32,788 nt of DNA from a phage: the NCBI GenBank assembly GCA_029942545.1, contig GCA_029942545.1_4114.3; one strand, 5' to 3'. How positions within the stretch are numbered: position 1 is the first letter of the stretch; each line of letters opens with the position of its first letter. Positions 8,034 to 17,561 of the stretch are shown here, piece after piece. A program made the position numbers and the translations under genes. Under the pieces are notes generated by a model that was given only the letters and a program-made list of their open reading frames with translations, was not told where the DNA came from and made no database searches.

Positions 8034-8098
8034 AATTCCCTCCCTTATTCATTATACTATATTTAATACAAAAAGAAATGCCAGTATCAAGTACTGGC
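8034..8098 (-). promoter_or_regulatory. terminator-promoter-RBS cassette
   Basis: Minus strand 5'-3': GCCAGTACTTGATACTGGC hairpin, ATTTCTTTTT, GTATTAAATATAGTATAATGAATAAGGGAGGGAATT, ATG. Confidence 0.65.
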
Positions 8099-8141
8099 AT
8101 TATGTTAATTAATAGTGTCTTTCTAAACACATTTCGTGCCT

Positions 8142-9317
8142 TTATTCAGGTAGTACCAATTTCTTCATTGTAACTTGTTGTGTACCTGGACTCTGTTCCT
8201 GAAACATAGACCCGTTACCACACCAGTACACCTCATTAGTCCCCACTAACGCGTATAACACACCAGAACCACCTTGTACTGAAAATGCATTAACATCTGG
8301 TGCAACATCCATATCCTCATATTGTACCTGGTGGTAATAAGATCTTTCTGATGCAGTAGTAACAGGCCAACCAAGAGGAACACCACTACCACATGTATAA
8401 AGTTTACCATTCTGTGTCATTGCCATTATAAAATAATTCAAACTGTGATTGTTCATCGACCCAGCATCTGGTATAATACCACTAATTTCGGGAGTAGCAC
8501 TAAATGGACTCATTGTAACCTTCGTGTCTCCATACCCAATTCCTAAACAATAATCAGTGTTTATCCCAGCAGTATATACTCTAATATTACCCTTATTCGA
8601 TGTAAGTACTGAAGTCGTCAAATTAGTACATGAAATACCAATAACTGTTCCAGATATATCAGTACTTACTGTAAATGTGGATAGTTTAGATGCACTTGTA
8701 CCTAGGTTATAACTTGCGTTATTACCACATCTGTAATATTGACCATTTTTAACATAATGTAAAGCACCACCAAAGTGTGTACCAGCAATCATAGTAACAC
8801 CAGTATCAATCTTAATCGGTGTCGCTTTTGCACCAGAAACACCCAGTTCACCTCCAGTATTACTACCTATCCCGTATAAATCACCATTGCTTAACATAAT
8901 TAATAAAGTACCATTTGAAGCGACAGTCTCAGTAGAAGCTATATCTTGAACTGTAGTAAGGCTTGGTATTGTAGACAATATTGATGTAATATTTGTCCAT
9001 CCTGGAACAGGCGATTTGACCACACCAAGGTATCCCATTTGTCCTGCTAAGTAAAATTCTCCTTCAGTCGTAAGTATAATGGTCCCTGCGGATAAACACC
9101 AAACATTAGCAACTTTATATGGACACTGTATCCATCCATTTTGTAAATACGCAGTACTATCATTTCCTAGCCTATATTGTGCACCATTACCACGTAGATA
9201 TAAATTACCACTATCGAACAACATACCCACATGTGTTGTAGATGTAGCAATCTTCAGTACACCCGAAGGTGCTGGTTTAACATTCCCGTACTTAACCATT
9301 CTTGCAAAAGGTAACAT
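8142..9317 (-). CDS. RCC1-like beta-propeller repeat protein with MLPFARMVKYGN leader
   Basis: ORF track; RCC1-type Gly-rich blades; own upstream cassette. Confidence 0.85.
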   Translation of the reverse strand: MLPFARMVKYGNVKPAPSGVLKIATSTTHVGMLFDSGNLYLRGNGAQYRLGNDSTAYLQNGWIQCPYKVANVWCLSAGTIILTTEGEFYLAGQMGYLGVVKSPVPGWTNITSILSTIPSLTTVQDIASTETVASNGTLLIMLSNGDLYGIGSNTGGELGVSGAKATPIKIDTGVTMIAGTHFGGALHYVKNGQYYRCGNNASYNLGTSASKLSTFTVSTDISGTVIGISCTNLTTSVLTSNKGNIRVYTAGINTDYCLGIGYGDTKVTMSPFSATPEISGIIPDAGSMNNHSLNYFIMAMTQNGKLYTCGSGVPLGWPVTTASERSYYHQVQYEDMDVAPDVNAFSVQGGSGVLYALVGTNEVYWCGNGSMFQEQSPGTQQVTMKKLVLPE

Positions 9318-9383
9318 AAATTCCTCCTTTATTCATTATACTATATTTAATACAAAAAGAAATGCCAGTACTTGAGTACTGGC
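9318..9383 (-). promoter_or_regulatory. terminator-promoter-RBS cassette
   Basis: GCCAGTACT-caag-AGTACTGGC hairpin plus T-run, TATAAT, AAGGAGG, ATG; near-identical to the other cassettes. Confidence 0.65.
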
Positions 9384-9389
9384 TTTATG

Positions 9390-15136: not shown

Positions 15137-16285
15137 TCATTGTATAAATGACATATCAACTTCTGTATAACTAAGAATGTTTTGTCCAGCAATTCCCCCC
15201 ATTACTACCATAGCATACCCACAATAATATAATTGCTCAGTGTCCGTAAGTATAAGTGAACCAGATGGAGTGCGTACCAAATTACACGAACTATTAAACG
15301 AAGTATACGAAGGAGTATATGAGTACTGATTAATATTATTACCAACACCTAATTGACCAAATCCATTCGACCCAGATGCGTATAGAACTTCATCACCTTT
15401 AGCTATATGTGATGCCATGTTACTAACACACGTATATAGAGTATAAACTCCTGAACTCAATAATGTCGGAGTTTTGTATTGTATATCGGTAGATGAAGAA
15501 GTACCACCTGTGCCAAATTCGTTCCCGTATTGTGCACCGAACTGTTTACCACAAGCGTACAAATTATTATCCGATTTAATAAAAAATGTACTCTGATAAC
15601 TTACATCAAAATCTATAACATCTGAAGCAATCATCGTCACCCCAGTAATAGAAGTTTGATTACCTGTACCTAACTGATAGTAATAGTTAAAACCACAACC
15701 CCATAAAGTATTATCTTCTTTTAGGTATATGTTACCAACTGCCTTTTTAACCGAAGTTATAGTATCTACCCTTTTGAATGTGTTAAAAGAATTAATGTTT
15801 GTACCATCACCAAATGATGATAGGTTCGAGTTATTGTTAACTCCACAACAATACAACGTACCATCGTTTGTTATCAAATTCACCTTCATATCATTAAAAC
15901 TACTCATGTATTTTATATCAGAAACATTAATACCACCTGATGTTATCCACGTAGTACAGTCCGTCCACAAAGTTTTTGTATCAGTTACACCAGTGAATGC
16001 CTTCGTGTTACCAGTGATAAAAACTTTTCCAGTACCTTTCTCTTCATACATTTGACAACTACTACTGTTATCTTCCAATAGAACTCGTTTAACATTCTCT
16101 GCACAAAGAATAAATTTACTCGATGCTACACCTGTACCAGTACCCCAATTCGTCGCAGAAGATGCATACAACTTATTAGTATAAGTATCATGGAGATACA
16201 TAGAATCACTTGAATATATTTTAAAACGCCTATCCTTACCAGGGGCAATATTCCCATAATTCATCATTCTTGCAAAAGGTAACAT
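15137..16285 (-). CDS. RCC1-like beta-propeller repeat protein with MLPFARMMNYGNIAP leader
   Basis: ORF track; motif SGSNGFGQLGVGNN; long stretches near-identical to 11848..12996. Confidence 0.85.
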   Translation of the reverse strand: MLPFARMMNYGNIAPGKDRRFKIYSSDSMYLHDTYTNKLYASSATNWGTGTGVASSKFILCAENVKRVLLEDNSSSCQMYEEKGTGKVFITGNTKAFTGVTDTKTLWTDCTTWITSGGINVSDIKYMSSFNDMKVNLITNDGTLYCCGVNNNSNLSSFGDGTNINSFNTFKRVDTITSVKKAVGNIYLKEDNTLWGCGFNYYYQLGTGNQTSITGVTMIASDVIDFDVSYQSTFFIKSDNNLYACGKQFGAQYGNEFGTGGTSSSTDIQYKTPTLLSSGVYTLYTCVSNMASHIAKGDEVLYASGSNGFGQLGVGNNINQYSYTPSYTSFNSSCNLVRTPSGSLILTDTEQLYYCGYAMVVMGGIAGQNILSYTEVDMSFIQ

Positions 16286-16350
16286 ATTTCCCTCCTTTAT
16301 TCATTATACTATATTTAATACAAATAAGAAAGCCAGTACAGTGTACTGGC
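16286..16350 (-). promoter_or_regulatory. terminator-promoter-RBS cassette
   Basis: Same cassette; hairpin GCCAGTACACTGTACTGGC. Confidence 0.65.
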
Positions 16351-16356
16351 ATTATA

Positions 16357-17496
16357 TTATTTCCACGGTAGAAGTGAATCAGGAACCCTTGTTGGTACAG
16401 TAGTTGAAGACATTCCAGTAAGATTGGGTACACCACATGTGTATAAATTATTATATTCGTCAACTAACATCGTATAAGAATAGCTCTTACAAAAACTACT
16501 AAGATTACTACCTTCTAATGCAGTAAGATCCATTTCAGCGAATGATGTTATATACATATCAGTTGTACCAATACCACATTGACCATTTGAATTAAGGCCA
16601 CATGAAAATAACTTATTATTATTATTAATTATACAGGATGGTCCGGTAAGGTTTGTCCCAAGCTCACCCACCAACTCCACTTCTCCTTGGAATGATAAAT
16701 TTGGAATTAATGTACTCATTGGGGCTACTGACCTATTTCCTGTACCTGCTTGTCCATAGTCGTTAATAGATGCAACTTTAACATTACCATCATTAAGAAA
16801 TATATAAGAAGTTTCATTTGTATTGACTGCTTTAATTGCATTACTAATCGAAGTATCTTGTGTAAATGTGAGCAAGTTTTGTGTCGTCGTTCCTGATACA
16901 AACGTTCTACCTGCATACCAATATGAACCATCATTTAGTACTAATCCAGTACTATATATTGCACAACCAGCACTGATAACATTTTCTATTGTACTATAGG
17001 TGAATCGTGAAACGCTTGAAGTTGATCCATTCCCAAAAACACCACCAGTACCAGCACCACAGTAGAACCACTTTCCATTTTTTAAAAATACACGCATACA
17101 CGAAGATATCACAACACTATCAATATCATCTGCACTGACACCGAAATCAGTAAAGTTCTGTGTTATATCAACCCAAACGCCGTTAGTGTTTGAAGATAGT
17201 ATTGGAATAACAGTACGTCTACCAGTGTACCAAATAGTACCATCTTTCTTTATAGCAATTGTTCCTTGTACCCCACCCCAATATCGTGTAACATTTGAGT
17301 TGACAAGAGTCCATTCAGTTGAAGAGTCCAATGAACCATTACCACTTTGTCCATATGCTGAAGAACCAAACCAATATAGATTGCCATTTGTGTGTAAATA
17401 AAATTTGGCATCAGCAGAACATTGTAACCTGTTTTTAGGTAGAATCAGTTCAGGTGCGATATTCCCGTACTTAACCATTCTTGCAAAAGGTAACAT
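16357..17496 (-). CDS. RCC1-like beta-propeller repeat protein with MLPFARMVKYGNIAP leader
   Basis: ORF track; motifs SSAYGQSGNGS, GLNSNGQCGIGTT. Confidence 0.85.
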   Translation of the reverse strand: MLPFARMVKYGNIAPELILPKNRLQCSADAKFYLHTNGNLYWFGSSAYGQSGNGSLDSSTEWTLVNSNVTRYWGGVQGTIAIKKDGTIWYTGRRTVIPILSSNTNGVWVDITQNFTDFGVSADDIDSVVISSCMRVFLKNGKWFYCGAGTGGVFGNGSTSSVSRFTYSTIENVISAGCAIYSTGLVLNDGSYWYAGRTFVSGTTTQNLLTFTQDTSISNAIKAVNTNETSYIFLNDGNVKVASINDYGQAGTGNRSVAPMSTLIPNLSFQGEVELVGELGTNLTGPSCIINNNNKLFSCGLNSNGQCGIGTTDMYITSFAEMDLTALEGSNLSSFCKSYSYTMLVDEYNNLYTCGVPNLTGMSSTTVPTRVPDSLLPWK

Positions 17497-17561
17497 ATTT
17501 CCCTCCTTTATTCATTATACTATATTTAATACAAATAAGAAAGCCAGTACTCTGTACTGGC
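17497..17561 (-). promoter_or_regulatory. terminator-promoter-RBS cassette
   Basis: Same cassette; hairpin GCCAGTACAGAGTACTGGC. Confidence 0.65.

Follow-up and report, generated by a model that had tools for sequence, protein, structure and literature searches.

The paralogous gene array in this window (the whole 32,788-nucleotide stretch of DNA analysed, from an Asteriusvirus jumbo coliphage of the PBECO4/121Q-like, Rak2-like type) is likely punctuated, junction by junction, by a composite terminator, late-promoter and N-terminal tag module of ~115 nt, such that each paralog forms its own late transcription unit and the modules act as recombination sites. Within a module, a hairpin is followed by a T-run, the sequence TAAATA-N3-TATAAT, a Shine-Dalgarno sequence, the ATG and 45 conserved coding nucleotides (MLPFxRMxxYGNI), the length given including these first 15 codons. 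Nine full and two partial copies occur within 15 kb (Table 1), and an alignment of 11 junctions places the stem-loop directly upstream of the predicted promoter, then the Shine-Dalgarno sequence and start codon. The array units measure ~1.2 kb, the beta-propeller bodies being of 40 kDa, and two of the 12 RCC1-like genes are frameshifted. All 13 array proteins open with MLPF(G/A/V)RM..YGN.

Mean pairwise identity between cassettes was 89% from hairpin to ATG and 86% over coding nucleotides 1-45, compared with 36-40% in the flanks and a median of ~28% (protein level) between gene bodies. A 30-nt promoter/RBS pattern allowing at most three mismatches had eight matches in the window and none in 100 shuffles, all ten exact matches of TAAATA-N3-TATAAT in the window lie at array junctions, and in the 348-kb 121Q genome the cassette is restricted to the array. 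The preliminary description had counted ten near-identical cassettes within positions 8034-17561, each a ~70-bp unit ending at the ATG. The recurring cassettes are real, but nine full copies lie in that interval, the tenth being the hairpin-less copy at the head of the array, outside it, and conservation runs 45 nt further into each gene. Two junctions lack the cassette and are translationally coupled instead, just as had been described. The decayed cassette before the last gene has kept TAAATA and lost TATAAT, with a longer spacer to GGAGG-ATG. For gene F, at the head of the array, the true first ATG is at 19888; separately, the list of open reading frames gives a spurious upstream start at 10607 for gene D.

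Table 1. Coordinates of the array, its junction modules and neighbouring elements in the window; promoters are predicted
Feature	Position	Strand	Elements
Paralogous array, 13 genes	4449..19906	-	12 RCC1-like beta-propeller, 1 glycine-rich
Module of gene G	17452..17561	-	hairpin 17543-17561, T-run, TAAATATAGTATAAT 17514-17528, AAAGGAGGG, ATG 17496, conserved codons 1-15
Module of gene C	16241..16350	-	hairpin 16332-16350, promoter core 16303-16317, ATG 16285
Module of gene B	15021..15130	-	hairpin 15112-15130, promoter core 15083-15097, ATG 15065
Module of gene H (glycine-rich, non-RCC1)	13761..13871	-	hairpin 13851-13871, promoter core TAAATATATTATAAT 13823-13837, ATG 13805
Module of gene N	12952..13060	-	decayed hairpin 13042-13060 (GCCAGTACTTGATACTAGC, -3.6 kcal/mol), promoter core 13013-13027, ATG 12996
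Module of gene R	11732..11841	-	hairpin 11823-11841, promoter core 11794-11808, ATG 11776
Module of gene D	10497..10605	-	hairpin 10587-10605, promoter core 10558-10572, ATG 10541
Module of gene I	9273..9383	-	hairpin 9364-9383, promoter core 9335-9349, ATG 9317
Module of gene J	7989..8101	-	hairpin 8077-8101, promoter core 8051-8065, ATG 8033
Hairpin-less head-of-array promoter, gene F	19889..19925	-	GGGGTAAATATGATATAATGAATAAGGAGGGAAAT
Decayed cassette, last (frameshifted) gene	5602..5668	-	hairpin 5646-5668, T7, CTAAATATAATAACGA
Cassette-less junction F-A, translationally coupled	18678..18685	-	stop TAG overlaps Shine-Dalgarno AGGAGGG
Cassette-less coupled junction upstream of gene E	6844..6855	-	TAAGGAGAAAATT-ATG
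Same-family hairpin left of array	3771..3792	.	TCCAGTACTATCAAGTACTGGA; A-run before, no T-run after on + strand
Divergent sigma-70-type promoter, small-ORF array	19937..19965	+	TTGACA-N17-TACTAT, CAGTACTG in spacer

The key promoter element, judged from patterns of conservation, is probably TAAATA, 3 nt upstream of TATAAT. TAAATA was present at all 94 cassette-bearing junctions of nine phages, whereas the adjoining TATAAT was altered at 16 of these, including seven cases of TATAAC, two of TATAAA and four of TAACGA. Both the decayed copy and the EJP2 type have TAAATA but not TATAAT, and the same is true of the region before GAP32_001, which has GATATT in its place. In 121Q, TAAATA is the top hexamer upstream of structural genes (28/44 vs 0/48 early-region genes, p = 1e-12), TATAAT shows the reverse bias, and outside the array TAAATA-N3-TATAAT stands only before a tail-tube gene and a virion Ig-protein gene. 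The product of 121Q_591, a gene outside the window, matches phrog_12791 and phrog_234, ‘late sigma transcription factor’ (gp55-type). For the related phage CBB, a gp55-like sigma factor and a late motif resembling that of T4, ATAAATA, had been predicted earlier; the motif had been predicted for GAP32 too, and homologs of the T4 co-activators gp33 and gp45 were not detected in CBB (PMC5259590). The likeness to T4-type late promoters comprises one AT-rich element of -10 type that lacks a -35 box and lies upstream of virion genes, the specificity of the motif for those genes, and a phage-encoded gp55-family sigma factor. The match is, however, confined to the 6-nt TAAATA core (ATTAAATA agrees with the T4 late element TATAAATA at 6/8 positions), the preceding base being T in the cassettes and A or C at most structural-gene sites, and late activity, with a start about 6 nt past the element as in T4, is a prediction. 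No transcript mapping for any Asteriusvirus was found in the literature searched. Of the earlier reading of a middle/late-type promoter with a clear -10 and no -35, the late type and the missing -35 stand, and it is the choice of TATAAT as the key element that probably gives way to TAAATA.

An alternative, considered unlikely, is that TATAAT is a functional -10-only promoter used by sigma-70, a phage sigma-70-like factor or a middle-mode activator, with TAAATA incidental and the array expressed early, in the middle period or constitutively. As TATAAT agrees fully with the sigma-70 -10 box and is a typical early-promoter hexamer, use by sigma-70 or dual use is conceivable; the box is perfect at 78 of the 94 junctions, GTATAATG has the same -10 context as the early promoters of the phage, 121Q also encodes a sigma-70-like factor (121Q_167), and the region around the array otherwise looks early. 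However, no -35 box was found in the cassettes at 16-18 nt spacing (best match 2/6), and the TTGACA of the divergent promoter indicates that real -35 boxes do occur beside the array. Further, TATAAC and TATAAA lose the critical final T, TAAATA is retained beside these and beside TAACGA, as it is at GAP32_001, and a start 7 nt past TATAAT would leave a leader of only ~10 nt beginning inside the Shine-Dalgarno sequence. The array products are also virion proteins, six of them (gp003, 005, 006, 007, 009 and 010) being present in the virion proteome of phAPEC6 (PMC7247149) and gp1 of GAP32 likewise being a virion protein (PMC5259590).

Under the favoured mechanism, for which we infer termination, initiation at TAAATA, late-sigma dependence and the mode of recombination, the stem-loop and U-tract would end the transcript of the gene upstream, and directly after the U-tract would follow a -35-less promoter of T4-late type with TAAATA as its essential element, TATAAT probably belonging to the start-site region. 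The promoter would probably be read by host RNA polymerase with the phage gp55-like sigma factor, and a strong Shine-Dalgarno sequence, the ATG and the 15 conserved codons would complete the module. Every paralog would then be a separate late transcription unit, its product a low-copy virion protein sharing the N-terminal tag, which is unstructured in the AF2 model and common also to non-RCC1 virion proteins. Because the same ~115 nt flank every unit, recombination between modules could delete, duplicate, replace or import whole genes, and it would also homogenise the modules within a genome (concerted evolution).

The literal hairpin of the preliminary description, GCCAGTACT-N3-5-AGTACTGGC, had no matches; the actual stems are GCCAGTAC-N3-4-GTACTGGC or GCCAGTA-CTTGA-TACTGGC, followed by a T-run in one of two variants, TTTCTTATTT or (A)TTTCTTTTT. 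The proposal that these hairpins insulate each gene as terminators is nonetheless supported. Folding energies were -10 to -13.5 kcal/mol for eight of the nine full-cassette hairpins, the three that were shuffle-tested gave z = -4.2 to -4.8, and the U-rich tract follows on the array strand only, with 8-9 T in the next 12 nt in eight of the nine. The window contains 22 terminator-like sites, compared with 7.5 +/- 3.1 in shuffles. Stem pairs vary in a compensatory manner (GGCCAG/CTGGCC, GGCTAG/CTAGCC, TGACAG/CTGTCA, GGTCAG/CTGACC, ACCAG/CTGGT), with three or more stem positions changed in both partners when Asteriusvirus, EJP2, 7t3 and fENko-Kae01 are compared, and the annotation of phage G17 lists the same hairpins as ARNOLD terminators. 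The intact cassette hairpins have the G+C-containing stem, U-tract and compensatory pairing of intrinsic (Rho-independent) terminators and are predicted to act as such. Termination may be partial or dispensable, given that the U-tracts are broken by other bases (UUUCUUAUUU) and that the decayed hairpin at the gene N junction is retained in two phages. The hairpin to the left of the array would, from the placement of its A-run and the lack of a plus-strand T-run, have a terminator-like form for minus-strand transcripts on their way out of the array and for no others.

It is improbable that the stem-loops are instead mainly 3' structures stabilising or processing mRNA, or duplex sites for a phage protein recognising CAGTACTG, in which case recombination at the junctions might be site-specific. 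The stems correspond to CAGTACTG split in two; this palindrome is more frequent in the 121Q genome as a whole than any other octamer and is under DNA-level selection (~15-fold excess even within genes). The inner part of the stems, AGTAC/GTACT, stays constant from genus to genus whereas the outer pairs show covariation, the loops reverse orientation between orthologous junctions, the U-tracts are imperfect, and the choice between homologous and site-specific exchange was left undecided by the authors who described the PeSL cassettes of T4-like phages (PMC2839356; PMC4122927). Against this, the geometry of hairpin and T-run is canonical and strand-specific, ARNOLD assigns the hairpins as terminators, the compensatory changes imply pairing, which a duplex binding site would not need, and several breakpoints between relatives fall not in the hairpin but in the repeated 5' coding part.

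Between relatives, orthogroup order differs by whole cassette-bounded units, and 35 of 46 homology breakpoints among seven relatives fell in junction modules, which make up 9.6% of positions (p = 9e-27, to be read with the related genomes as non-independent samples, with short-read assemblies of repeat arrays potentially chimeric and with the CMSTMSU record flagged as unverified). Breakpoints at gene boundaries are also expected from selection for intact genes. Among the 129 ortholog pairs whose bodies share at least 93% identity, 42 had discordant 5' modules, and in the Q ortholog pair identity jumps from 76% to about 99% at codon ~16. Cassette type tracks the genome and not the gene (gene L, slurp01 vs EJP2), and one and the same body is preceded by a full cassette in one phage and by a head promoter or a coupled junction in others. 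The suggestion that identical cassettes serve as recombination handles is thereby supported, and the proposed comparative search for cassette-bounded indels found gains, losses and swaps between relatives to coincide with the modules.

There is little probability that the cassettes are kept only by purifying selection on the signals and N-terminal peptide, with recombination incidental and the array differences reflecting filtered ordinary indels or assembly artefacts. In favour of this reading, a function of signals and tag is plausible, other genera have a conserved tag peptide (MIPFARILxYGN) encoded by different codons, selection would preserve whole-gene boundaries and some records are of poor quality. 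Yet nearly all copies also agree at positions that have no obvious role as a signal (GTATT, GAATAA, the spacer), with the bodies saturated at 28%, and the genome-specific cassette types, the changing junctions before one body, the sharp switch at codon ~16 and the differing unit orders in several independent, well-assembled genomes all argue against it.

By analogy, the cassettes are a late-promoter counterpart, in architecture and evolutionary role, of the composite PeSL and PmSL cassettes, in which T4-like phages combine a terminator with a promoter (Arbiol et al. 2010, PMC2839356; Comeau et al. 2014, PMC4122927). PeSL consists of a stem-loop, promoter, Shine-Dalgarno sequence and start codon (PMC4122927 Fig. 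3 legend), its promoter being sigma-70-like and early with -35 and -10, whereas PmSL has a Mot box and -10; in RB49 and phi1, termination by the PeSL stem-loop and mini-circles from inter-copy recombination were shown experimentally (PMC2839356; PMC4122927). Common to all are the order of parts, the numerous, almost identical copies that occupy successive intergenic spaces of a plastic region, the position of copies where close relatives differ by insertion, deletion or replacement, and the proposed double role as expression signals and crossover sites. The Asteriusvirus cassette differs in its late-type TAAATA core without a -35, in a repeat that reaches 45 nt into coding sequence, in carrying ~1.2-kb paralogous virion-protein genes and not small ORFans, and in its Rak2-like jumbo phage carrier; PeSL clusters are rarer in virion structural gene regions (PMC2839356; PMC4122927). 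The view that a regulatory cassette is at the same time a recombination handle would thus extend from T4-like to Rak2-like jumbo phages, from early/middle to late-type promoters and from ORFans to a virion-protein family. It offers a simple explanation for why the array varies more than any other part of Asteriusvirus genomes that are elsewhere 95-99% identical, and a late-promoter consensus that can be tested in a phage group without transcript maps. Terminator, late promoter, RBS and 15-codon tag would also form a portable part for engineering jumbo phages, which could express foreign proteins and possibly load them into virions.

Two further systems bear comparison. Integron gene cassettes are bounded by attC hairpins, and the array resembles them in its gene-sized units separated by imperfect palindromes and in content that varies by whole units. 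It differs in that every unit has its own predicted promoter and terminator, some crossovers lie in the 5' coding repeat and not the hairpin, and no integrase was noticed in an unsystematic look at the window. The internal-protein (IP) genes of T4 share a short N-terminal capsid-targeting sequence that is removed by the prohead protease. There, as here, dissimilar virion-carried proteins with conserved 5' regulatory DNA and a short N-terminal peptide are shuffled between related phages, the polymorphism of the T4 locus being that of Repoila et al. 1994, as cited in PMC4122927. In the array, however, no T4-type (L/I)xE site is conserved after the tag and the bodies are beta-propellers. A packaging role of the tag, to which its lack of structure in the AF2 model, its occurrence on non-RCC1 virion proteins and the presence of its carriers in virions point indirectly, is a conjecture by analogy, as is its cleavage.

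A more speculative and improbable extension is that the locus is a diversity generator for virion-carried proteins, in which a late-promoter module of PeSL type is combined with a universal virion-incorporation tag and exchange is aided by a phage protein recognising the CAGTACTG core. Late expression and loading into the particle would then follow for any body joined to the module, whether RCC1 propeller, glycine-rich or other. Exchange would be partly site-specific and not just homologous, and CAGTACTG would have a function genome-wide that invites comparison with HIP1 of cyanobacteria. The tie between this hyper-abundant palindrome and the cassette stems raises a separate question about Asteriusvirus genomes.

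Megablast placed the contig in the genus Asteriusvirus, among the ~350-kb 'Rak2-like' jumbo coliphages PBECO4, 121Q, SP27, slurp01 and G17, and no record covered at least 80% of a 12-kb array query, an early indication of a mosaic array. The array consists of 13 minus-strand genes, all of which start ATG TTA CCT TTT G.. AGA ATG (MLPFxRM..YGN), and the encoded proteins are 19-28% identical outside this region (median 28%). RCC1-like repeats were recognised by Pfam in three of four array proteins tested, and gene G was assigned by PHROGs to 'regulator of chromosome condensation'. 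Gene H, which encodes a glycine-rich, non-RCC1 protein with no Pfam match and belongs to PHROG 4474, a family of unknown function, has the same cassette and N-terminal tag as its neighbours, so the 5' module does not depend on the propeller body. Scans of the window for tRNA genes and Rfam families were both empty.

The cassettes described previously are real. Their interpretation stands as well, after correction of the number of copies, the hairpin consensus, the length of the repeat and the key promoter element. A 30-nt promoter/RBS string had 8 matches at ≤3 mismatches against 0 in shuffles, and TAAATA-N3-TATAAT occurred exactly 10 times in the window, every time at an array junction. Between 8034 and 17561, nine full cassettes were counted instead of ten; the tenth copy, a hairpin-less promoter at the head of the array, lies outside that interval, and an eleventh is decayed. 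The two junctions lacking a cassette are as originally reported. The repeat had been taken to be ~70 bp long and to end at the ATG, whereas the conserved block continues 45 nt into each gene, with mean pairwise identities of 89% from hairpin to ATG, 86% over codons 1-15 and 36-40% just outside. Recent tandem duplication was rejected as the source of this identity, given bodies that are ~28% identical and the same module on the non-homologous gene H. A genome-wide element was likewise rejected, as the cassette was confined to the array within the 121Q genome and was found in only 33 public phage records, all of Escherichia/Salmonella jumbo phages. No paper in the literature searched describes such cassettes from Asteriusvirus or Rak2-like phages; there are only GenBank features: terminators in G17, annotated by ARNOLD at the hairpins, and a terminator plus repeat_region in UE-S1.

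Coordinates of the array and of repeated features in the window
Feature	Coordinates	Strand	Basis or remark
RCC1 array	4449-19906	-	
Head promoter, hairpin-less tenth copy	19889-19925	-	outside 8034-17561
Full cassettes, upstream of nine ATGs	17496, 16285, 15065, 13805, 12996, 11776, 10541, 9317, 8033	-	junction alignment
Decayed eleventh copy	5602-5668	-	keeps TAAATA, not TATAAT
Junctions without cassette (coupled)	18678-18685, 6844-6855	-	
Gene H	13068-13805	-	
Gene J, frameshifted	7224-8033 with 6856-7260	-	
Last array gene, frameshifted	5377-5601 with 4449-5345	-	
Promoter copies	24424-24451, 27027-27054, 28593-28620, 30597-30624, 32637-32664, ~7 more	+	repeat family
Short iterons in 23795-25743	23910-23959		GTAATCATAA x4.8
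	23971-23997		GTAGTGATCA x2.7
	24866-24964		CTAGACGG x12

The literal hairpin consensus given in the preliminary description had 0 matches; the actual stems, GCCAGTAC-N3-4-GTACTGGC or GCCAGTA-CTTGA-TACTGGC, are one base shorter and have variable loops. Within the window, the CCAGTAC..GTACTGG hairpin was restricted to the array, except for one relative at 3771-3792, and terminator-like sites were three-fold enriched (22 versus 7.5 expected). Folding energies were -10 to -13.5 kcal/mol in eight of the nine full-cassette hairpins, with z of -4.2 to -4.8 for those shuffle-tested (n=3), and 8-9 of the first 12 nt downstream of each are T, on the array strand alone. The remaining hairpin, at 13042-13060, is decayed (-3.6 kcal/mol), and the same decayed copy is present in 121Q; the decayed cassette has kept an intact hairpin (5646-5668; -13.9 to -14.4 kcal/mol, z -5.0) and the T-rich tract after it. 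Across nine phages, the median for junction hairpins was -12.4 kcal/mol (n=83). In more distant phages, compensatory changes affect the outer stem pairs around a fixed AGTAC/GTACT core, as in EJP2 (ACCAGTAC/GTACTGGT) and in Salmonella 7t3 and Klebsiella fENko-Kae01 (GGCTAGTAC/GTACTAGCC, TGACAGTAC/GTACTGTCA, GGTCAGTAC/GTACTGACC), which indicates that pairing is under selection. Stability, the strand-specific T-tract and these compensatory changes uphold the terminator reading, and the stem-loop fits a putative intrinsic terminator.

Two further observations concern these hairpins. Near-identical phages carry the loop in opposite orientations at orthologous junctions (AGA/TCT, TGA/TCA and CTTGA/TCAAG, at window hairpins 17543-17561, 13851-13871 and 8077-8101), which suggests that template switching, or an exchange between its arms, has flipped the palindrome. 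The relative at 3771-3792 lies between two plus-strand genes, ~660 nt past the last stop codon of the array. Its T-run is on the minus strand only, so transcripts leaving the array may run antisense through the gene at 3806-4468 before terminating.

No convincing -35 had been noted, and there is no -35 element at the cassettes; the T-run of the terminator fills that position. True -35 boxes do occur nearby on the other strand, where the stretch 24.4-32.7 kb has about twelve copies of TTGACA or TTGCAA-N16-TATAAT, and a further -35 box lies at 19937-19965. Scanning the array for generic sigma-70 promoters was uninformative (85 matches versus 79.5 expected). The core candidates, TAAATA and TATAAT, are 3 nt apart. 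Among 111 array junctions from nine phages, TAAATA was present in 94/94 of those without translational coupling, and the second hexamer deviated in 16 of these 94 (TATAAC 7, TAACGA 4, TATGAT 3, TATAAA 2); TAAATA without TATAAT remains at the decayed window copy and at the single-copy gene GAP32_001. Motifs were also counted across the whole 121Q genome and within 70 nt upstream of structural (n=44) and early-region (n=48) genes. TAAATA was the most widespread hexamer upstream of structural genes (28/44, versus 0/48 early-region; Fisher p = 1.3e-12), while TATAAT showed the opposite bias (8/44 versus 27/48). Only two non-array copies of TAAATA-N3-TATAAT occur in the 348 kb of 121Q, upstream of a tail-tube gene and of a gene for an Ig-domain virion protein. 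In addition, 121Q_591 falls in gp55-type late-sigma PHROGs, and both a gp55-like sigma (in CBB) and a T4-late-like ATAAATA motif before structural genes (in CBB and GAP32) have been predicted (PMC5259590). The phAPEC6 virion proteome holds six array proteins, gp003, 005, 006, 007, 009 and 010 (PMC7247149), and GAP32 gp1 is a virion protein (PMC5259590). From the invariance of TAAATA, its structural-gene bias in 121Q, the gp55-type sigma and the virion products, we infer that the cassette promoter is late-type. This agrees with the earlier proposal of a phage-specific promoter, whose key element is probably TAAATA and not TATAAT. A start a few bases past TAAATA would give a ~20-nt leader including the Shine-Dalgarno sequence; if sigma-70 initiated after TATAAT, the leader would be only ~10 nt long. 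No transcript map for Asteriusvirus or Rak2-like phages was found in the literature searched.

To compare arrays, gene bodies were clustered into orthogroups, designated by letters, for the window together with eight relatives; the resulting orders differed between phages by whole units.

Order of array genes by orthogroup
Phage	Gene order
Window	F A G C B H N R D I J E x
SP27	L F A G C B H D I J K E
slurp01	O S L F A G C B x D P E x
PBECO4	F A G C B x D T x
121Q	C M A G B H N D x J K x
G17	O F A U C M B H I P E
phAPEC6	V M A W X B H D I J K E

Among these genomes, which are related and whose repeat arrays may be misassembled, the comparison for cassette-bounded indels proposed in the preliminary description placed 35 of 46 internal ends of high-identity segments (window versus seven relatives) within 120-nt junction intervals that cover 9.6% of positions (binomial p = 9e-27). 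The same pattern would be expected from selection for intact genes, and sharper evidence was therefore sought in the modules themselves. Among ortholog pairs whose bodies share at least 93% identity (n=129), the 5' modules are discordant in 42, and one and the same body stands, in different phages, behind a full cassette, a head promoter or a coupled junction. Between the Q orthologs of EJP2 and CMSTMSU, the latter flagged as unverified, identity switches from 76% to ~99% at codon ~16. These observations support the suggested role of the cassettes as recombination handles. The cassette of gene L is PBECO4-type in slurp01 and EJP2-type in EJP2, so that cassettes resemble their genomic neighbours and not their orthologs, which is the signature of concerted evolution.

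Other genera retain the tag at the protein level (MIPFARILxYGN), and in 7t3 and GAP32 it also stands at the start of non-RCC1 proteins with a structural annotation; no tag motif was found outside the array in 121Q. An AlphaFold model built from ten window paralogs gave pLDDT 80-95 for the propeller, with residues 1-24 unstructured (pLDDT < 50). These unstructured residues and the non-RCC1 carriers mark the tag as a separate module, plausibly a candidate virion-docking or targeting peptide, and they dispose of a 'velcro' strand closing the propeller. A glycine-rich (PE-PGRS-like) protein of the fENko-Kae01 array, which may or may not carry the tag, was detected by LC-MS/MS. Two array genes are frameshifted, with breaks common to several relatives: gene J stops after 269 aa, with RCC1-like coding (..GQLGNG..) going on in another frame to 6856, and the last gene breaks off after 74 aa and continues as a 298-aa ORF. 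The 269-aa product corresponds to phAPEC6 gp007, detected in virions.

The closest known system is the PeSL/PmSL cassettes of T4-like phages. Each of these combines a stem-loop and promoter with a Shine-Dalgarno sequence and ATG, and the copies recur in plastic regions, where modular shuffling is mediated by them (PMC2839356, PMC4122927). The array cassettes match these in architecture, clustering and association with indels, but lack the defining early or middle promoter type, extend as a repeat into coding sequence and carry virion-protein paralogs in a jumbo phage. The array module is for these reasons described as a 'late-promoter stem-loop' module with tag, a new variant that would work like PeSL. 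The T4 internal-protein locus offers a second and looser parallel; nothing spoke for an integron-like system, which was also considered. The same array design was observed in other Rak2-like genera (Salmonella 7t3, Klebsiella fENko-Kae01, GAP32), in the order hairpin with AGTAC core, T6, AATTAAATATA(G/A)TATAAT and tag MIPFARILxYGN. Coupled junctions are commoner there, and GAP32 has just two tagged genes.

The hairpin stems are a split form of CAGTACTG, which has 33 sites in the window versus 0.4 expected (e.g. 24040, 24398, 24438, 24581, 24607, 25122, 28607, 32651) and, with 194 sites, is the single most frequent octamer of 121Q. AGTACT is 7.6-fold over-represented, and the excess within ORFs outlasts synonymous-codon shuffling (AGTACT 501 versus 123.5 +/- 10.6; CAGTACTG 106 versus 7.1 +/- 3.3). 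The same excess was seen at the EJP2, 7t3, fENko-Kae01 and GAP32 loci, and CAGTACTG also fills the spacer of early promoters; no paper on this palindrome was found in the literature searched. The hairpins may also be protein-binding sites. The array would be of wider interest if the tag were a virion-loading signal, or the palindrome a recombination or binding site.

On the 121Q genome map the plus strand holds most genes; the RCC1 array forms an island of minus-strand genes with late-type promoters inside a long region of small, early-looking plus-strand genes. A second regulatory family is repeated on the plus strand, TTGACA or TTGCAA-N8-CAGTACTG-TATAAT, followed in the leader by TTTACATC and a GGGG..CCCC stem-loop (in 121Q and at least two window copies); it looks like early sigma-70 promoter/stem-loop cassettes before small genes spaced ~90 nt apart. 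A second, plus-strand paralog array (19991-23795), divergent from the RCC1 array at its head, has at least twelve 60-70-aa ORFs with the consensus M.HKEYY..L....IL.LI..Y, and their copy number varies among relatives. The adjoining ~1.9 kb (23795-25743) contains no ORF of at least 60 aa, no tRNA and no Rfam match, and may be an origin-like or terminal-repeat-boundary region; it holds, besides short iterons, ~10 exact CAGTACTG copies, mostly as (T)CAGTACTGA, and a few near-copies.
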